Shown piece by piece: positions 3,161 through 60,989 of a stretch of DNA of 64,000 nucleotides; the first letter of the stretch is position 1; each line of letters starts with the position of its first letter. The position numbers and the translations under genes are program-made. The notes under the pieces were generated by a model. The model was given only the letters and a program-made list of their open reading frames with translations, searched no databases and had not been told where the DNA came from. The DNA lies in the sequence record MK562505. The stretch is one strand, 5' to 3'. This DNA comes from Shigella phage Silverhawkium.

Positions 3161-3184
3161 TTAAAAAGGCTCCCGTAGGAGCCT
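3161..3184 (-). terminator. rho-independent terminator after the NAMPT-like gene
   Basis: hairpin GGCTCC-cgta-GGAGCC followed on the minus strand by a T-run. Confidence 0.55.
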
Positions 3185-3198
3185 CTTATAATACTTAC

Positions 3199-5016
3199 TT
3201 AGATTTGGTTGTCAATAACTTTTCGTACATCACGAAGGTTAACATAACCATATGGTTGTGAATCACAGAAGACAAGATTCAGAGCGCATTGAGGGTTGTC
3301 AAGGATACCTTCAAACTCTGCAAATCCAAACCCATCTACAGCTTCTAACTTATCTCCATCCCACATTGGAACGACACCACCAAATGCAGACTTCTTCAGA
3401 CCACTATCTGTTTTCGGGTCTTTTGCCAGCATGATTTCTTCACCATCCATCTGAGCAAGTGTAGCCTTCACAGCAAATGCAAAGGTGTCACGAGTCAAGT
3501 ATTGGTAGGTGTAAGAACCTACACCAAACACTACGTTAGAGCTTGCAAAACCTTTTTCAGCAAGACGGCTAAGAATCTCTTCAGCACGTTCTAGCGTGAT
3601 AGAATCACCATAGATAAGACCAATATGCTCATCAAGAACTTTGTAGCCTTTGTCATTAACGGTTCCTCCAAAGATGTTATACAGTGTCTTGATAGCACCA
3701 TCAATTTCTGCTGTTAGCATTGGCTTGATAACCACGTTTCCAGTTTTATAAACATCTTTCAGGTTAACTGTATCAGCAACGTTGAAGTCTTCTGCATCAA
3801 CAACTAATTCATAACCCTCTGAGATTAACCATGCAGAGAACCCATAACCCATATCCGACATAGAGCAATTTAAGATTGCATCTAGTAAGAATGTGTTATT
3901 TGGAGAAATAGTTTGCATGTGCTTGTAATACATGCTCTTTGCATTCTCCCACTCAATAGCACGATAGCCAGTTACAATGTGTACAGGGTCACCGGAATCT
4001 GGACGGATTACCAGTTTGCCATCACGTTTCAATATTACTTCACGAAGTTCTGGAAGAATCTCTGTAACTGTACGCCAGAAGTTATAAGTGTCAGAAACTA
4101 TACTTGCAATACCAGTTGGATAAACATCAACTAACAGACGTTTAAAAGTGTCTACCTCACCACGCCAACGCATTGCATCTAGCAGGTTATCAGATTGCAT
4201 AAGATGCCAATCACTAACTTCTTTAGAGGTACTATTCCATGAAATGTTTGCACACATCACAGAGTGTTCAGTTGCTGGTACAGAGTTGCCAATATCACTG
4301 ATTGTCATAAACTGACCATAAGCACGTTTAGCAGTATACACAGCAGGGAAGCTGTCAGTACCTTTAAAGCTGGTCAAGTGACCTACAGCATTAAAAGCAT
4401 CATCTGTGAAGCCAGACATACCACGCATTGCAAAATCATGACACTGCCAAGGCAAGTGAAAGTCATTATCACAGGTTACATCAGCCCAATTCTTACAGAT
4501 ACGTTTGTAGTGCAGTGCAATAGTTGCAATGGTACAAGCTTTCCAGATTTCAGCAGAGAAAGCATCTTCCAGATAACCAGCTACCCAATGGAAACCTTCA
4601 ACAGTGTTTTTGAAGACAATCATTGGTACACGCATAGGCACTACAATACCTTCTTCAACAGAGTATACAGCAACTGGCAAGTATCCTAAATCGTGAAGTG
4701 CTTCCCAATGTTCACGACCAATGGCATTTTCACCAAGAACACCATTCATAACCTCTAAGATTTCATCGACAACTTCTTTCTTGTCGCGCTCAAAGAATGT
4801 TGCGTTCCAATGGTCTACCAGATAGTCTTTTACAAAACGTTGGATACCAAAAGCAACTACACCATCAACTTCCAAAGGACTGTTAAACCACTTATCACCA
4901 CGAGGTGTAAGGTTTAGCATCAGGTACTGTGTAGCACTTGGGTACTGGTAAATATGACCTGCCTTGTAAGCATCTGCGTTAAGACCTGCTGGGACTGCAT
5001 AGATTGATTTAGTCAT
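3199..5016 (-). CDS. nadV: nicotinamide phosphoribosyltransferase-like enzyme (NAMPT/NadV family; Namat-like alternative possible)
   Basis: 605 aa; N-terminus NADAYKAGHIYQYP resembles the conserved DSYKVTHYKQYP start of NAMPT enzymes; GAGAGAGA RBS. Confidence 0.8.
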   Translation of the reverse strand: MTKSIYAVPAGLNADAYKAGHIYQYPSATQYLMLNLTPRGDKWFNSPLEVDGVVAFGIQRFVKDYLVDHWNATFFERDKKEVVDEILEVMNGVLGENAIGREHWEALHDLGYLPVAVYSVEEGIVVPMRVPMIVFKNTVEGFHWVAGYLEDAFSAEIWKACTIATIALHYKRICKNWADVTCDNDFHLPWQCHDFAMRGMSGFTDDAFNAVGHLTSFKGTDSFPAVYTAKRAYGQFMTISDIGNSVPATEHSVMCANISWNSTSKEVSDWHLMQSDNLLDAMRWRGEVDTFKRLLVDVYPTGIASIVSDTYNFWRTVTEILPELREVILKRDGKLVIRPDSGDPVHIVTGYRAIEWENAKSMYYKHMQTISPNNTFLLDAILNCSMSDMGYGFSAWLISEGYELVVDAEDFNVADTVNLKDVYKTGNVVIKPMLTAEIDGAIKTLYNIFGGTVNDKGYKVLDEHIGLIYGDSITLERAEEILSRLAEKGFASSNVVFGVGSYTYQYLTRDTFAFAVKATLAQMDGEEIMLAKDPKTDSGLKKSAFGGVVPMWDGDKLEAVDGFGFAEFEGILDNPQCALNLVFCDSQPYGYVNLRDVRKVIDNQI

Positions 5017-5030
5017 CTTATTATCTCTCT

Positions 5031-5053
5031 CAAAAGTGGGGCTATTCAGCCCC
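5031..5053 (-). promoter_or_regulatory. intercistronic hairpin (possible attenuator) between Prs-like and NAMPT-like genes
   Basis: GGGGCT-attc-AGCCCC stem-loop at 5038-5053 with only a weak U-run, immediately upstream of the NAMPT RBS. Confidence 0.4.
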
Positions 5054-5063
5054 TTTAATGGTT

Positions 5064-5945
5064 TTAGTCGATATTTAGTACAGTCAATTGACCATAACGT
5101 GTTAAGCCACGGTCTTCAATATTGCCTAATGAGTTTGTAGTGTAGATGTGGTCAATACCATTGTCAAGTAGGTTCTCAATACCTTTAGAGAAAATACCAT
5201 GAGTGACATACAGTTCTACACGTTCTGCTCCAGCTTCACGAAGATACTTTGCAGCCTCAATGAAGGTTCGACCACCATCACAGATATCATCAAGAATCAT
5301 GACGGTCTTGCCAGTTAAATCTACATCATCAAGGATTCGCATACCAGTGATTTCACCAGTTTTCAGGTTGCGAACCTTAGACATTGTGATGTAGGGTTTC
5401 TCTACATCTTTTGCTGTTTCTTCGGTCTTCTTGGCTGCACCTGCATCTGGAGCTACCAAATAGTCAATACGGGAGTCACTTGCAATGTGTGATGCAACTT
5501 CCTTCTGAGGTATGCAATGGAAGCACTTAAATAGATTTTCTGCGACATTACTATGAACATCCAGAGAGCATACTGCATCAAATTCCATTGCATTCACCAG
5601 ATTGGCAAATACCTTGAGTGCTGCTGCATCACCTTTAAACATGTGACGGTCATAACGGGCATTTGGTAAGAACCCGAACAGAACAGTCTTCATAGCTGAA
5701 CCTTGAGGGATGAGTTTGTCAACTGCCTCTTTAGCTAAAGCTAAGGCAAACAAGGTGTCTTTGTCATAACCCTGCACAGTAAAGATGACATTCTCAATCT
5801 TACCAGCGAAGCTTTCAGCAAACTGTACAAAGTCTTCAGAGAAGTTACCACCAATCTCACCAGATGGAAACTGAATAATATTGAAGGCTTCTTCTAAATT
5901 ACCTTTAGTACTTGAGCTAATAAGAACTCGGATAGTTGTTTTCAT
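5064..5945 (-). CDS. prs: ribose-phosphate pyrophosphokinase-like enzyme (Prs family; Adps-like alternative possible)
   Basis: NARYDR, MILDDICDGGRT (PRPP-binding loop) and VTHGIFSKG motifs parallel E. coli Prs; ORF-track start is TTG at 5963, ATG with GAGAGAAA RBS at 5945. Confidence 0.8.
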   Translation of the reverse strand: MKTTIRVLISSSTKGNLEEAFNIIQFPSGEIGGNFSEDFVQFAESFAGKIENVIFTVQGYDKDTLFALALAKEAVDKLIPQGSAMKTVLFGFLPNARYDRHMFKGDAAALKVFANLVNAMEFDAVCSLDVHSNVAENLFKCFHCIPQKEVASHIASDSRIDYLVAPDAGAAKKTEETAKDVEKPYITMSKVRNLKTGEITGMRILDDVDLTGKTVMILDDICDGGRTFIEAAKYLREAGAERVELYVTHGIFSKGIENLLDNGIDHIYTTNSLGNIEDRGLTRYGQLTVLNID

Positions 5946-5955
5946 AATATTTCTC

Positions 5956-6234
5956 TCAATCAAAAGTTACGTTGGTTACTGCCATTGCAGATTTACATTT
6001 TGCAGGGTCTACAGTGTGATAGAGAACACTACAGTTTCCTGTGCTATCTGGTACAGGTTTGACCCATTGGTGTTTAATATTTGGTTCTCCAAAGTCTTTG
6101 TAGGAACCATCTGTATAATGGTCTACCATCTCAATAGCAAGTATCTCTGGGACGTGACCACGTATCATATACATCTCACAACCATTCCCACCTTCACTTA
6201 CTAATGGTAAGATTTCCCATCTCTCTTTAGCCAT
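5956..6234 (-). CDS. hypothetical protein (92 aa)
   Basis: ORF in operon. Confidence 0.35.
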   Translation of the reverse strand: MAKERWEILPLVSEGGNGCEMYMIRGHVPEILAIEMVDHYTDGSYKDFGEPNIKHQWVKPVPDSTGNCSVLYHTVDPAKCKSAMAVTNVTFD

Positions 6235-6742
6235 GATAAGTTGCCCTATAAACTGTCTCGAACTTCAACAAGAGAGATATTGCCAGAGTCACATACTCCT
6301 TGTCAAGCATTGGTGGCATATTATTTTTGATATATTCCTCCTGTTCTTCATAGGTCATCTTAGGAGTGTCCAGAATAGTTTCTCCCTGCTTCTGGTTATC
6401 AAGTTGAGTCTGGATAAACCAGTTAGAGCAATGATGCTCACCACCCTTTGTGACGGGCTTGTGGTGGCCTAATGTGAAGGCTTGCTTACCAGAGTATCTG
6501 CATAGTTTGTTAAGTGATGCAATAGTGTTCTTGACAACACAGTACTCGTATAGGTTGTCTATGGTGTAGTGAGGGTAGTATCTGAAGAGTGATTTGTCAC
6601 GGAAGCTTCCATGATTCCAAAGAACCATGTGATTAGAGTTTGAAGGGTCATATTTGTGGGAGTCTATAAATTCTTGACGCTCATCAAAATCGAGACGCAG
6701 AACAGACATTGCAGCAGAGCGCTTAAGATTTGCAAGATACAT
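6227..6742 (-). CDS. HNH-motif endonuclease-like protein
   Basis: 171 aa; GHHKPVTKGGEHHCSNW...N fits the HH-x2-P-x3-GG-x-N HNH core. Confidence 0.45.
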   Translation of the reverse strand: MYLANLKRSAAMSVLRLDFDERQEFIDSHKYDPSNSNHMVLWNHGSFRDKSLFRYYPHYTIDNLYEYCVVKNTIASLNKLCRYSGKQAFTLGHHKPVTKGGEHHCSNWFIQTQLDNQKQGETILDTPKMTYEEQEEYIKNNMPPMLDKEYVTLAISLLLKFETVYRATYHG

Positions 6743-8664: not shown

Positions 8665-9120
8665 TTACTTAAACCTACAACAATCTTTGTGGAGTTCCTT
8701 TCTCAGTTTCTTCATAAAATCAACAGCTTCCTCAAACTTTTCAAATCTTCTTGAAACCGTTTTCTTGTTATATGTTACTGAAGCTCTCCATCTTCTTCTT
8801 GTAGAGTCCCAAGATACACCTTTAAATCCAGTTTTGTTATCCTCTCGCAATTTAGCATTGCAAGCATTGTCAACTTTGTTAGAGGCTCTTAGGTTTATCC
8901 ACCTGTTATCATCCTTGATACCATTTATGTGGTCTACTAATTCAGGAGCATCTTCACCCATCAAAGTGAAAGCTAATCTATGAGCATACTGTTTTGAACC
9001 ATCTGGTAGTTCAATTAGTATGTATCCACTAGTTATCCTGCTTCCAGCCACATCTCCACTATCTTTCCATCTTATCTCCCCATTATCCGGGTTATAGTCA
9101 AGAAAATTAGCTACATACAT
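8665..9120 (-). CDS. free-standing HNH homing endonuclease with AP2-type DNA-binding domain
   Basis: YAHRLAFTLMG...VDHINGIKDDNRWINLR (HNH) and GFKGVSWDSTRRRWRASVTY (AP2-like); inserted between nrdD and nrdG. Confidence 0.7.
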   Translation of the reverse strand: MYVANFLDYNPDNGEIRWKDSGDVAGSRITSGYILIELPDGSKQYAHRLAFTLMGEDAPELVDHINGIKDDNRWINLRASNKVDNACNAKLREDNKTGFKGVSWDSTRRRWRASVTYNKKTVSRRFEKFEEAVDFMKKLRKELHKDCCRFK

Positions 9121-11255
9121 ACTCTGTCCTTAATTTCTGCAATTTTTGCATCATTCATTCTTGAAGTACCTTTTATTTTAGTCCACCCAAGATAACCACA
9201 AACACGATTGATAACTGAAATGTCATGTGAATGGCACTTAGGGCACTCATCAACATCTTCGTTAGGTCTATGTCCACAATTTTCACAGATTGCTAAGTCA
9301 AAGTTAACACCTTGATAGAAACCTTTACCCATACCTCGTGAGACACAAGCACTAATAGCTTTTTTGTTCTCTGGGTTTGCCATTCTAGAGTAAATGATGT
9401 GACCACCATTGCAAGAATGGAAGAATGGTTCTTCTAAGTCTTGCTTCTCAAATGGTGTAATCTCTGCTGCTACGTTCATATGGAAGCTGTTTGTAAAGTA
9501 CTCTTTATCAGATACCCCTTTGATTACTCCAAACATGTTACGGAACTGCTTTAATTGCGTACCACAAAGGCTCTCAGCAGGTGTCCCATAAAGGGCATAC
9601 AAGAAGCCATCTTCTTGCTTAAACTGCTCCAGTTTGTGGTTTAGGTGCTCCATAACTTGATGTGCAATACCTTTTGAGTTTGCCTCATGAAGTCTACCTT
9701 CTCCCGCAAGAACTGATAACTCATCTAATGCAGTAACACCAAACGATGCTGTGAAAGACTTCACTGTTTCCCAACCAATCTTATCAGTAGGTTTCTTATT
9801 ACCTTTATAGAGTCCACCTTGTGTGAATGCAAGAGGGTTTGAGCTTGCTGGCATGTTAGCAATCATCTCATACCGTTTTTGATGGAACACCCTAATCATT
9901 TCAAGATATTTGTCAATCTCTGCAAAGAAGTCAAGTTGATTCTCCTTAGCATACTGGTAAATCATCGGTAGATTTAGTGATACAGCACCAATGTTTGCAC
10001 GACCAACATAAAACTCTTTACCATCTTCATCAAAATATGGTGAGAGGTAAGCCCTGCACCCCATTGGCGAGATAACCTTACCAGAACGTTTGAAAGCATC
10101 TGCAACAGCACCATGACCAGATACACTCAAGAAGTCTGGGTACATTGCTTTTGAACAACACTCAATAGCTTTGCTGTATAGCTGACCTTGCCAGATATCC
10201 AGATTATGTCGTGTCTTATCATAGATATAGACAAGTTTTGGAAACACTACTGGCTTCTTAGCTTTTCCTTGTCCATTCATTCGAACATCAAGAATTGTCT
10301 TAGCAATCATGTACTGGAGTCTGTTATCTTCATTTGCCATATCTGGTTCCAGTAAACCAAAAGTCAAAGTTGTGAATGCAAAATCACCACGGCTACATGG
10401 CACTGTATTCAATTTCATTTCCAGTGACTGAAAGCCTTGTGTTAATTCAATTTGCAACTGGTTTTTAACATAATGGTAAATGTTTTCTTTAGGGATTCCA
10501 TAAGCAATAGCCATCTCTTCATGGTATTTTTGAGACTTCTTAGCATATGGCACTAGCACCTTATCAATCTCTGGGATAGTGAATCCACCAAATTGTTGAG
10601 CAGTGGCTGACAAAACAACATCACCAATAACCTGCAAGGCTGACAGAACAGACTTAGGTTCACAGTATTCAATGCCTGACATTTCAAAGCCACCTTCTAA
10701 GACTTTGCCAATGTCAAACAAACAGCAGTTAATTCCGCCAAATACTAAGTCCCTCAAGTCATGAATATAGATAAAACCTTCTTCAATAGCTTTTGCCTCT
10801 TCAGGTGTCAAGTGATATTGTTTAAAGATTTCTTTAGTCAGATAACCACGGATAATAGAACCTTTAGTAGAGATTAAACTACTGTCAAAGTTAGCGTTTT
10901 CACGGTCTCCTAAGAACAGTGTATCTTTAGTCTTCTGATAGAGTTCATCCCAATTCTGTGCAACCTCTTTACGGTAGTTGCGATAGGTTGAGTAAGATTC
11001 GTAAATCTCGTGATTAACTTCTGCTAAAGCCCCTTCAACAATGCTGTGAATATCATCTACAGAGATTAGCATAGTGTTCTGATTACAAGCCTTGACAAGA
11101 ATACGCATAAAAGCTGATTCAAGGGCATGAGCAACCTCTAATGGGAGTTCTTTATACCCCACTCTATTAGCTGACTTTGTAACTGCTGCTAAAACTTTTT
11201 TAATATCTGGTTCTTCAAGTGAGCCATTCTTTTTAATAATTTGTACTTTGACCAT
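9111..11255 (-). CDS. nrdD: anaerobic ribonucleoside-triphosphate reductase
   Basis: C-terminal glycyl-radical region RVCGYLG and Cys-rich metal site; start moved to MVKVQ with AAGGAG RBS (ORF-track start 11357 lies upstream of a terminator). Confidence 0.85.
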   Translation of the reverse strand: MVKVQIIKKNGSLEEPDIKKVLAAVTKSANRVGYKELPLEVAHALESAFMRILVKACNQNTMLISVDDIHSIVEGALAEVNHEIYESYSTYRNYRKEVAQNWDELYQKTKDTLFLGDRENANFDSSLISTKGSIIRGYLTKEIFKQYHLTPEEAKAIEEGFIYIHDLRDLVFGGINCCLFDIGKVLEGGFEMSGIEYCEPKSVLSALQVIGDVVLSATAQQFGGFTIPEIDKVLVPYAKKSQKYHEEMAIAYGIPKENIYHYVKNQLQIELTQGFQSLEMKLNTVPCSRGDFAFTTLTFGLLEPDMANEDNRLQYMIAKTILDVRMNGQGKAKKPVVFPKLVYIYDKTRHNLDIWQGQLYSKAIECCSKAMYPDFLSVSGHGAVADAFKRSGKVISPMGCRAYLSPYFDEDGKEFYVGRANIGAVSLNLPMIYQYAKENQLDFFAEIDKYLEMIRVFHQKRYEMIANMPASSNPLAFTQGGLYKGNKKPTDKIGWETVKSFTASFGVTALDELSVLAGEGRLHEANSKGIAHQVMEHLNHKLEQFKQEDGFLYALYGTPAESLCGTQLKQFRNMFGVIKGVSDKEYFTNSFHMNVAAEITPFEKQDLEEPFFHSCNGGHIIYSRMANPENKKAISACVSRGMGKGFYQGVNFDLAICENCGHRPNEDVDECPKCHSHDISVINRVCGYLGWTKIKGTSRMNDAKIAEIKDRVCM

Positions 11256-11274
11256 TTGTGCTCCTTTATATACG

Positions 11275-11296
11275 AAAAAGGTCTCCGAAGAGACCC
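11275..11296 (-). terminator. rho-independent terminator, GGTCTC-cgaa-GAGACC
   Basis: perfect 6-bp GC-rich stem, minus-strand U-run; same hairpin recurs at 15397-15420. Confidence 0.6.
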
Positions 11297-11301
11297 TTAT
11301 A

Positions 11302-11508
11302 TTAATTCTTTTTGAAAACCTTATCAAGAAACTTTTTGAGTTTTCCGCTAAGGTCAAGATGGATTTCTAGAATCTCAAAGATTAACCATACTAGCATTAC
11401 CCCAAACATAAAACCTTGTTTAAAGTCAATGAACATATTCATTGTGAAGATGATAATCAGAAGCATGACAGCATCTACTTTAAAACCATTTATAATTTTC
11501 TCAAGCAT
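11302..11508 (-). CDS. small hydrophobic membrane protein (68 aa)
   Basis: VMLLIIIFTMNMFIDF / FMFGVMLVWLIFEIL hydrophobic segments. Confidence 0.4.
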   Translation of the reverse strand: MLEKIINGFKVDAVMLLIIIFTMNMFIDFKQGFMFGVMLVWLIFEILEIHLDLSGKLKKFLDKVFKKN

Positions 11509-59545: not shown

Positions 59546-59621
59546 TGGAGTATCGGAAGGGACTCGAACCCTCATAAACCTGTTTTGCAGACAGGAACAT
59601 ATCCATTTCTGTCACCGATAC
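59546..59621 (-). tRNA. tRNA-Cys (anticodon GCA)
   Basis: manual cloverleaf; anticodon loop CTGCAAA; T-loop TTCGAGT; CCA encoded. Confidence 0.7.
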
Positions 59622-59627
59622 ATAATT

Positions 59628-59720
59628 TGGAGGAAGATACCAGACTTGAACTGGTACGCCGATTTCTCGGTTACTGGCAGTTTAGCAAACTGCTCCCTTA
59701 CCTGTTAGGGTTAATCTTCC
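59628..59720 (-). tRNA. tRNA-Ser (anticodon GCT), long variable arm
   Basis: anticodon loop TTGCTAA; type II variable arm; T-loop TTCAAGT. Confidence 0.65.
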
Positions 59721-59722
59721 AG

Positions 59723-60457
59723 TTATTTGTTAAGTGCATCTTTCATTTCTGGTGTAGAGATAGAGTCAATAACACCAGTCTTACAAGCATCATCAAACCA
59801 GTCTGGTAAGACATTTGCAAGAAAACCGTTAATGTTTGTCTTAAGATACTCAGCCATCAATGCTACTTCATCAGCAATCATCTGTGTGACTTCTGAAGCG
59901 TATGCAGTAATCTTTGACATACCTTCATTAATCGCTGTAACAGCTTGTGAGGCTAAATCTTCGATTGTATCAAGCCCTTGGTCAATTGCATCTTGTAAGT
60001 CGCTTAGAACGCCGTTTACAGCGTCTATGGAGGTGTTTATAATCTCCATAGCTTTGTTACCATACTCAGTAGCAACTCCCATAATCCCACTGAATGGCGT
60101 ACAACCAACTTGTTCACCTGCTGCTCCCATTACATTAGAGTAGCCTTTTGCCACCTGCATTCGTTGAGAGAACTCATCTACAGATTTCTGACCATACTCA
60201 GTCAGTGTAGTGGTTGTTGAAGTTGTACTGCCAAGACTTGTTGTGAAGCTACTTAAGAGTGCTGCTGTTAATCCAGCCGCAATAAGCTTATCTTGCACAG
60301 TCGGGTCTGTTACGGAACTAATAGAGTTTACTAATGACTGAGAGGCAGCAATTGTACCACCAAGGACTGCTGCACCAGTAATAAGAGGGTTTGAGAAACC
60401 ATTACCAGTTTTAAGGAGATTAAAAATCTCTTTACTTTGTTCTGTCATCTCTTTCAT
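59723..60457 (-). CDS. membrane protein embedded in the tRNA array
   Basis: 245 aa from MKEMTEQ (TAGGTG RBS); two hydrophobic segments, Ser/Thr-rich stretch, acidic helical C-terminal domain. Confidence 0.5.
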   Translation of the reverse strand: MKEMTEQSKEIFNLLKTGNGFSNPLITGAAVLGGTIAASQSLVNSISSVTDPTVQDKLIAAGLTAALLSSFTTSLGSTTSTTTTLTEYGQKSVDEFSQRMQVAKGYSNVMGAAGEQVGCTPFSGIMGVATEYGNKAMEIINTSIDAVNGVLSDLQDAIDQGLDTIEDLASQAVTAINEGMSKITAYASEVTQMIADEVALMAEYLKTNINGFLANVLPDWFDDACKTGVIDSISTPEMKDALNK

Positions 60458-60473
60458 TATGCACCTATAAAGT

Positions 60474-60546
60474 TGGTAGCCCATCGGGATTTGAACCCTG
60501 TTCTCATGTTTTTCAGACAAGCGCTTTAACCATATAAGCTAATTGA
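60474..60546 (-). tRNA. tRNA-like element, isotype unresolved (possibly aberrant)
   Basis: acceptor pairing and TTCAAAT T-loop present; no canonical anticodon stem or D-stem found. Confidence 0.3.
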
Positions 60547-60547
60547 G

Positions 60548-60624
60548 CTATTAAATTGGGGTGACCTACGGGAATCGAACCCGTATAGACCATGTTCACA
60601 GCATGGGTCATTATCCATTTATGA
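60548..60624 (-). tRNA. tRNA-His (anticodon GTG)
   Basis: anticodon stem CCATG/CATGG, loop CTGTGAA; T-loop TTCGATT. Confidence 0.7.
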
Positions 60625-60664
60625 TAAGGCCACATTTAAGGACTCTCGTAAGAACCCTTAGAAG

Positions 60665-60740
60665 TGGCAGCAGTATAAGGATTTGAACCTTAATCTTTCA
60701 GCTTCAGAGGCTGGAGCATTGCCAGTTATGCTATACTGCT
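60665..60740 (-). tRNA. tRNA-Gln (anticodon CTG)
   Basis: anticodon loop CTCTGAA with one stem mismatch; T-arm TAAGG/CCTTA. Confidence 0.55.
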
Positions 60741-60746
60741 AATATT

Positions 60747-60817
60747 TGGTACTCCATATCGGATTCGAACCGATACATAACACAGATTTTAAATCTGGCC
60801 TCTCTGCCAATTGGAGT
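60747..60817 (-). tRNA. short tRNA-like gene, anticodon unresolved (possibly TAA)
   Basis: good acceptor and T-arm (ATCGG-TTCGAAT-CCGAT); anticodon region folds non-canonically. Confidence 0.4.
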
Positions 60818-60827
60818 AATGGAGCCT

Positions 60828-60903
60828 TGGCGGGGGATGATGGAATTGAACCATCTTCTTCGATTTCAAAGACCGAGGTTTTAACCTTGTAAACTAATCC
60901 CCT
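60828..60903 (-). tRNA. tRNA-Gln (anticodon TTG)
   Basis: anticodon stem TCGGT/ATCGA, loop CTTTGAA; A1-C72 mismatch. Confidence 0.6.
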
Positions 60904-60911
60904 ATTAAATT

Positions 60912-60988
60912 TGGTGCAGAATAGAGGATTCGAACCCCTAACAAACAACTTCGTAGATTGCTGTTCTATCCATTTGAACTAATTCTGC
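60912..60988 (-). tRNA. tRNA-Arg (anticodon ACG)
   Basis: perfect acceptor GCAGAAT/ATTCTGC; anticodon loop CTACGAA. Confidence 0.6.
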
Positions 60989-60989
60989 A

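Follow-up and report, generated by a model that had tools for sequence, protein, structure and literature searches.

An adjacent adps–namat gene pair of Shigella phage Silverhawkium as a very probable NARP1 operon with a long-form Namat

NAD+ reconstitution pathway 1 (NARP1) was published in 2024 from phage Bas63 (Escherichia phage JohannRWettstein, Felixounavirus, MZ501086; genes bas63_0079 and bas63_0080), a sister of the phage considered here. The present analysis concerns a 64-kb stretch of DNA from Shigella phage Silverhawkium (Ounavirinae; sequence record MK562505), hereafter the window, and two adjacent genes within it, adps and namat. It is very probable that this pair constitutes a NARP1 operon, in which the combined chemistry of Adps and Namat would counter NAD+-depleting defence. 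The system is already known, both Silverhawkium genes are found in the tables of the discovery paper, and the locus adds no new biology.

According to the proposed mechanism, a defence system of the host (SIR2-HerA/Nezha, Thoeris, DSR1/2, SEFIR or Kongming) would cleave NAD+ into ADP-ribose and nicotinamide. Adps, a pyrophosphokinase of the Prs family, would then pyrophosphorylate ADP-ribose at its free ribose, at the expense of ATP, and so form ADP-ribose pyrophosphate (ADPR-PP). In the reaction of Namat, a transferase of the Nampt family, nicotinamide would displace the pyrophosphate of ADPR-PP and yield NAD+ directly, with no need for a nicotinamide mononucleotide (NMN) adenylyltransferase. 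The preference of Namat for ADPR-PP over phosphoribosyl pyrophosphate (PRPP) as the donor would come from a clamp that holds the adenine at the entrance of the pocket.

The analysis of SpβL1 (a Bacillus phage) proteins in vitro showed that Adps converts ADP-ribose into ADPR-PP and has no Prs activity, and that a K162A mutation abolishes its activity (Osterman et al. 2024, bioRxiv 10.1101/2024.02.11.579819). SpβL1 Namat prefers ADPR-PP over PRPP, makes NAD+ directly and consumed ADPR-PP exclusively in the presence of both donors (Osterman et al. 2024). Deletion of the operon in Bas63 sensitised the phage to SIR2-HerA, ADPR-PP was detected in vivo only when the operon and the defence system were present together, and the protection conferred by the operon persisted in a ΔpncC ΔnadR host (Osterman et al. 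2024). NARP1 protection was also described for FADO (DSR2) and for SBSphiJ carrying a knock-in of the SpβL1 NARP1 (Thoeris) (Osterman et al. 2024). Finally, a structural study of SpβL1 Namat from 2026 (PDB 9W5X and 9W5W) defined the distinction between Namat and Nampt, the catalytic core being conserved (PMC12774641).

The two genes of Silverhawkium occupy the following positions in the window:

5064 to 5945, minus strand: adps, putative ADP-ribose pyrophosphokinase (ADPR-PP synthetase), NARP1 gene 1; 293 amino acids (aa), ATG at 5945 and stop at 5064.
3199 to 5016, minus strand: namat, putative nicotinamide ADP-ribose transferase, NARP1 gene 2; 605 aa, ATG at 5016 and stop at 3199.

Both open reading frames (ORFs) are intact and co-oriented, with a spacer of 47 nt (5017-5063) between them, and the G+C content of the region 3199-5945 is uniform (0.37-0.42). 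The initial annotation had described adjacent, co-oriented NAMPT-like and Prs-like genes separated by a hairpin, a description confirmed by the exact coordinates, the Pfam and PHROGs families and the spacer. Its suggestion that the genes form an Adps/Namat-type NAD+ reconstitution pair is borne out by orthology to Bas63 gp79-80, by the Namat motif and clamp loop, and by the listing of the genes in the discovery paper. The NARP1 assignment made here is thus based on orthology, gene order, conserved catalytic and clamp residues, and fold; by analogy, we infer that the proteins of Silverhawkium act in the same way and confer protection on it.

Bas63 belongs to the same subfamily and shares the gene order and the flanking genes of the window, although it represents a separate genus-level lineage, the window having ~83% nucleotide identity to Mooglevirus and Suspvirus phages. 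Adps is 82% identical to Bas63_0079 across all 293 aa, and Namat is 76% identical to Bas63_0080 over the full length. The two loci also have in common the clamp residues (K42-W43 and GSYTYQY-TRD), two insertions in Namat, the stem of the intergenic hairpin, the GAGAG sites and the downstream terminator. They differ in the hairpin loop and in the length of Namat (593 aa in Bas63 and 605 aa in the window), the first insertion being 11 aa longer in the window. SpβL1 is more distant, with 34% identity for Adps and 46% for Namat, but it displays the same two-gene order, the same catalytic and NAD+-contact residues and the same class of helix motif. Its adps and namat genes overlap, whereas those of the window are separated by the hairpin-containing spacer.

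Adps is assigned to the Prs family by Pfam (PF00156, 3.6e-11; PF14572, 2.9e-10; both exceed the gathering score) and to ribose-phosphate pyrophosphokinase by PHROGs (phrog_619, 3e-97). However, of the Prs models in NCBIfam, the broad subfamily model TIGR01251 is the only one whose cut-off it exceeds (128.3 bits vs 113); it fails every Prs equivalog, with at most 110 bits against cut-offs of at least 296 bits (best model NF002095, 110.2 vs 296), so a canonical Prs was rejected. Lysine K190 (MSKVRN) aligns with the catalytic K162 of SpβL1 Adps (GHKQRN), and also with the flexible-loop lysine of the archaeal Prs 4TWB. The full 293-aa sequence is identical to MK562505_00006, listed under 'Adps homologs' in Supplementary Table 1 of Osterman et al. 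2024. A Namat homolog is immediately adjacent in 97% of the Adps clade (Osterman et al. 2024), and the same arrangement is found here, on the same strand and 47 nt apart. The sequence evidence places the window protein in the phage Adps clade rather than among cellular Prs enzymes, the clade placement being taken from the published listing. Adps homologs are encoded in 1402 phage records.

Namat also carries the names of its broader relatives. It matches PF04095 and PF18127 in Pfam (the NAPRTase and NAMPT_N families) and nicotinamide phosphoribosyl transferase in PHROGs (4e-196), and it passes the NCBIfam equivalog NF006629, 'nicotinate phosphoribosyltransferase', with 463.6 bits vs 405. The names given by Pfam, PHROGs and NCBIfam, including a passed equivalog cut-off, favour a classical salvage route, in which PRPP is formed from ribose-5-phosphate by the Prs-like enzyme and combined with nicotinamide by the NAMPT-like enzyme to give NMN, and NadD, NadR and PncC of the host complete the synthesis of NAD+; the catalytic core, common to Namat and Nampt, is equally compatible with this route. 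The two routes are distinguished by more specific comparisons.

In a PDB sequence search, the best match of the window Namat is SpβL1 Namat (9W5W/9W5X, 1e-124), ahead of Haemophilus ducreyi NadV (HdNadV, 1e-100), Xcc Nampt (3e-50) and human NAMPT (3e-38). The AlphaFold2 model (mean predicted local distance difference test score, pLDDT, 92; predicted template modelling score, pTM, 0.90) leads to the same order, since Foldseek places 9W5X/9W5W at the top (E = 2e-52; TM score 0.94-0.95, normalised to the target), then HdNadV and then human NAMPT. The protein is also MK562505_00005, marked 'Adps-associated' in the Namat table of Osterman et al. 2024, where the ~400 aa printed agree with the window protein. 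It is 100% identical to the NCBI protein of Shigella phage Silverhawkium.

The catalytic core is kept in the window Namat as F195, R198, D221, H251, R338 and D340, which correspond in SpβL1 numbering to F189, R192, D215, the catalytic His, R306 and D308. The NAD+ contacts of the crystal structure could be mapped to D15, Y17, F195, R198, D221, A248, H251, R338, D340, G470, D471, G500, S501, Y502, Y506, T508, R509 and D510, and all contact residues are identical or conservatively changed. The substitutions with respect to SpβL1, S190 to A196 and A362 to S472, are both common to Bas63. Two elements would form the adenine clamp, namely K42-W43 in a loop and the aromatic motif GSYTYQYLTRD in a helix, encoded at the following positions:

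3487 to 3519, minus strand: codons of the Namat selectivity-clamp helix motif (SCH), G500-S-Y-T-Y-Q-Y-L-T-R-D510.
4888 to 4893, minus strand: codons of the Namat selectivity-clamp loop (SCL), K42-W43.

GSYTYQYLTRD agrees with the published Namat motif GSXΦXΦXΦTRD. The third Φ position, mainly Asn or Val in Namats (PMC12774641), is Leu in the window and Met in Bas63. In the loop, the counterpart of SpβL1 R40 is K42, with W43 next to it, exactly as in Bas63. The third position of the SCL can be Arg, Lys or Tyr, providing the stacking residue directly or via the next residue, and a Lys followed by an aromatic residue corresponds to the Bas63 type (PMC12774641); SpβL1 stacks through Arg40, while the window has Lys42-Trp43. 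The equivalent of the SCH region in true Nampts is different: GGALLQKVDRD in Xcc Nampt, GAQTYQRNTRD in HdNadV, and GGGLATGDLDRD in the Nmnat-associated Nampt of phage CcrRogue. Both adenine-stacking positions are Tyr in the window Namat, unlike in these three proteins, and a canonical Nampt or NadV, whose SCH region is devoid of adenine-stacking aromatics and whose preferred donor is PRPP, was rejected.

The comparison of active-site and pocket residues that the initial annotation had proposed as a check therefore yields catalytic, NAD+-contact and clamp residues matching Namat, together with an aligned catalytic lysine in Adps. The same annotation had held that sequence could not separate the ADPR-PP route from the PRPP-to-NMN route. 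This claim has been overtaken, because Bas63 orthology, the GSXΦXΦXΦTRD motif with the clamp loop, and the table listing do separate them. Classical salvage is further contradicted by the orthologous Bas63 operon, which protected a ΔpncC ΔnadR host and made ADPR-PP in vivo, by the lack of Prs activity of SpβL1 Adps, by the exclusive use of ADPR-PP by SpβL1 Namat with both donors present, by the adenine clamp that true Nampts lack, and by the low scores of Adps against the Prs equivalogs. Classical salvage as the function of the pair is considered extremely unlikely, and its Prs and Nampt chemistry is left only as a possible side activity.

Several points weigh against the NARP1 reading. The activities attributed to the Silverhawkium enzymes are predictions from sequence. 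Since the Bas63 enzyme purified poorly (Osterman et al. 2024), the in vitro chemistry is that of the SpβL1 proteins, with the 34% (Adps) and 46% (Namat) identity given above. Namat retains PRPP-to-NMN activity in vitro (Osterman et al. 2024), and some NMN output is possible. No published sequence determinant of ADP-ribose specificity, separating Adps from Prs, was found in the literature searched, and Adps membership is therefore founded on the listing and phylogeny of the authors, on orthology and on Namat adjacency. Lastly, the insertions specific to Ounavirinae may affect the activity of Namat.

A different question is what NARP1 chemistry would be for. The window aligns collinearly with phages of the Ounavirinae (Felix O1-like), for example Citrobacter phage Moogle, the ~83% nucleotide identity extending from rIIA onwards. 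The gene order is NrdG, five small genes, Adps, Namat, three small genes and rIIA. As regards homologs outside phages, chromosomal proteins of Enterobacteria (Klebsiella, Cronobacter, Phytobacter, Kluyvera, Erwinia and others) of 495-496 aa are ~45% identical to the window Namat and carry the Namat motif as GS(F/Y)TYQYNTRD; judging by this motif, they may represent bacterial or prophage NARP1.

It could be argued that the pair performs NARP1 chemistry chiefly for metabolic housekeeping, to sustain a high NAD+ level during phage replication and to reuse ADP-ribose whatever its origin. The operon lies within a nucleotide-metabolism block (nrdA/B/D/G, thyA, DHFR and deoxynucleoside monophosphate kinase), the pair is conserved universally in Ounavirinae, the Namat motif also occurs in homologs on enterobacterial chromosomes, and bacterial NARP1 of unknown physiological role has been reported (PMC12774641). 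Nevertheless, ADPR-PP was seen in Bas63 only with a defence system, the deletion phenotype depended on defence, and the supply of ADP-ribose, which builds up mainly once NADases have acted, limits the pathway. A chiefly housekeeping role is very unlikely on this evidence, and the anti-defence role of the NARP1 operon is preferred.

The pair can also be compared with the other described pathways and variants. NARP2 (Nampt/NadV plus Nmnat of Vibrio phage KVP40) likewise uses a Nampt-family enzyme to restore NAD+ against NAD+-depleting defences. Its Nampt, however, prefers PRPP, is paired with Nmnat and is not located beside Adps, whereas the window has an adjacent Adps and a Namat with the clamp motif. 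No Pfam match to Nmnat (CTP_transf_like) was obtained in 46 window proteins (the pair, 10 neighbours and 34 early-region ORFs; the structural region and ~25 kb outside the window were left out), and the Nmnat motif G.F.P.H.GH does not occur in any of the six frames of the 64-kb window. With Adps adjacent and no Nmnat found in these scans, a NARP2 variant was rejected. Cellular Prs together with Nampt/NadV (H. ducreyi NadV 9KE8, Xcc Nampt 7YQO, human NAMPT) share the folds and the core phosphoribosyl-transfer chemistry, but their sequence scores against the window are much weaker, and the window Adps is shorter than Prs in addition to failing the Prs equivalogs.

Two extended forms of NARP1 have the same Adps and Namat core as the window. 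NARP1-AP (Adps, the Macro phosphatase Adpp and Namat; Vibrio phage Gary) has an extra Macro-domain phosphatase acting on ADP-ribose-1''-phosphate (ADPR-1''-phosphate), and NARP1 with RyDEP (mycobacteriophage DyoEdafos) has an extra RyR-domain glycosidase. No Macro-domain (Adpp) match was detected in the operon, the neighbouring small ORFs or the 34 further early ORFs, and no RyR-domain match (PF02026) in the operon, its neighbours or the other early ORFs scanned. On the basis of these scans the NARP1-AP and RyDEP variants were rejected, and the window presents a plain two-gene NARP1. Because no Macro- or RyR-domain gene was found, the phage is predicted to stay sensitive to aRES-type cleavage, which yields ADPR-1''-phosphate.

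The most distinctive feature of the window Namat with respect to SpβL1 is its length. The initial annotation had estimated the NAMPT-like protein as about 100 aa longer than usual, and the comparison with SpβL1 Namat (605 aa vs 491 aa) agrees, with a difference of ~110 aa from typical relatives. The extra length is accounted for by two insertions with respect to Namats of 491-496 aa:

4159 to 4245, minus strand: Namat insertion 1, helical (aa ~258-286), directly after the catalytic-His strand (ATEH251SVM).
3703 to 3966, minus strand: Namat insertion 2, alpha/beta domain (aa ~351-438, ~88 aa), between the R338/D340 strand and the G470/D471 strand.

In the AlphaFold2 model, helices are predicted around insertion 1 at residues 251-262, 269-274 and 278-298. 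Insertion 2 has a pLDDT of 91-95 within the whole-protein model and, predicted alone, forms a compact alpha/beta unit (pLDDT 90.9, pTM 0.81). All long-form homologs, the most distant at 46% identity, possess both insertions; among them are those of Felixounavirus, Mooglevirus, Suspvirus, Kolesnikvirus phiEa21-4, and phages of Yersinia and Pectobacterium. Neither the forms of Bacillus phages nor those on enterobacterial chromosomes have them; in SpβL1 Namat, the loop at the position of insertion 2 is GDPEAKDELVRK. Judged on these sequences, the extra length is a lineage-wide feature of Ounavirinae, found also in the 593-aa Namat of Bas63, and no sign of a different enzyme.

Insertion 2 has no relative in Pfam, PDB or BFVD (a viral structure library). 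When 1.84 billion representative proteins were searched with its profile, only six matches reached E <= 0.001, comprising three Namats and three weak partial matches; the only credible ones are long-form Namats. One of the weak matches, a 247-aa repeat protein with GWELV-type 'GWELVAVTEDADAFYTLFFKR' units, aligns with EGYELVVDAEDF...TVNL in the C-terminal half of insertion 2 (E = 5e-4); this may reflect chance or a shared small beta-rich motif, homology not being established. The Namat structural paper modelled Bas63 Namat, and its text makes no mention of the insertion (PMC12774641).

As both insertions follow active-site strands, they can be placed on the catalytic face of the barrel, a location that we infer from strand order and not from coordinates. 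It is conceivable, though rather unlikely, that the two insertions form an extra lobe on this face that adds a function lacking in the SpβL1 enzyme. Possible functions of the insertions include a lid at the adenine entrance, the capture or channelling of labile ADPR-PP from Adps, and a regulatory or partner-binding site. The inserted domain may also explain the differing purification behaviour of the Bas63 enzymes.

The non-coding elements of the operon are as follows:

5038 to 5053, minus strand: intergenic hairpin GGGGCU-GAAU-AGCCCC, then ACUUUU; 6-bp GC-rich stem, -11.6 kcal/mol, z = -2.5 vs shuffles.
5025 to 5031, minus strand: GAGAGAG ribosome-binding-site-like element upstream of namat, conserved in relatives.
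5953 to 5957, minus strand: GAGAG ribosome-binding-site-like element upstream of adps, overlapping the stop codon of the upstream 92-aa gene.
3164 to 3187, minus strand: intrinsic-terminator-like hairpin with a U-run directly after namat; 10 pairs, then TTTTTAATTT (terminator scan), -18.2 kcal/mol.

The stem of the intergenic hairpin is invariant and its loop variable in four related Ounavirinae phages (Bas63, Sf14, DaR-2019b and SP116). Covariation cannot be used to support the hairpin, since the stem is invariant across all five sequences and only the loop differs. A canonical intrinsic terminator was rejected, as the hairpin is followed by just four U and was uncalled by the terminator scan. 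Weak attenuation and stabilisation of the mRNA are possible roles of this hairpin. The hairpin after namat is stronger than the intergenic one, and its sequence is identical in Bas63. In the Citrobacter phages Moogle and Mijalis, an HNH homing-endonuclease gene fills the spacer between Adps and Namat (Mijalis KY654690, 1191-1479), where the hairpin is all that the window and the Felixounavirus phages contain; the spacer is therefore a homing site in some relatives.

The initial annotation had also pointed to an unusual GAGAG-type ribosome-binding site shared by the two genes. GAGAG is indeed present before both, at 8-9 nt from the ATG, and the TTGATTGAGAGA before adps is identical in the window and Bas63. 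The motif is not specific to the pair, however, since GAGAG precedes 7 of the 71 window ORFs, vs ~0.01 expected per ORF, and a pair-specific signal was rejected on this basis. The recurring region consists of a U-rich run followed by TTGAGAG(A/G) and is located before ORFs with these starts:

5016, 5945, 21936, 22874 and 23734, minus strand: ORF starts with the TTGAGAG(A/G) region.
24544 and 27987, plus strand: ORF starts with the TTGAGAG(A/G) region.

GAGAG thus appears to be a Shine-Dalgarno variant used across the phage, with no particular tie to the adps–namat pair.

Regarding the neighbouring genes, the conserved 92-aa gene upstream of adps was rejected as a NARP1 accessory because it has no similarity to the gene at the same position in Erwinia phage phiEa21-4; the differing neighbourhood in SeKF_80 also disfavours it. 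Two genes upstream of adps, a conserved 171-aa ORF (6227-6742, minus strand) corresponds to phrog_3500 and has a weak HNH-endonuclease-like match (phrog_2214, 4e-5) together with an HH...N...N motif. Further on, nrdD (9111-11357) is abutted at its 3' end by a 151-aa HNH endonuclease ORF (PF13392, phrog_99; 8665-9120, minus strand). The nrdD gene of Bas63, annotated as a joined coding sequence, has a homing endonuclease within it. A cluster of 24 tRNA genes (ARAGORN) is located at 59546-63896 on the minus strand.

In databases, adps is named ribose-phosphate pyrophosphokinase and namat is named nicotinamide or nicotinate phosphoribosyltransferase, and neither Pfam nor PHROGs has an Adps or Namat family. 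Since Pfam, PHROGs and NCBIfam still used Prs and phosphoribosyltransferase names in 2026, routine annotation hides NARP1. The pathway can be recognised reliably by the GSXΦXΦXΦTRD motif combined with a short Prs-like gene next to it. As a strategy against defence NARP1 is important: the virus rebuilds the metabolite destroyed by host immunity. Within the locus, the inserted domain of the long-form Namat stands out as the only unexplored element and has apparently not been studied.

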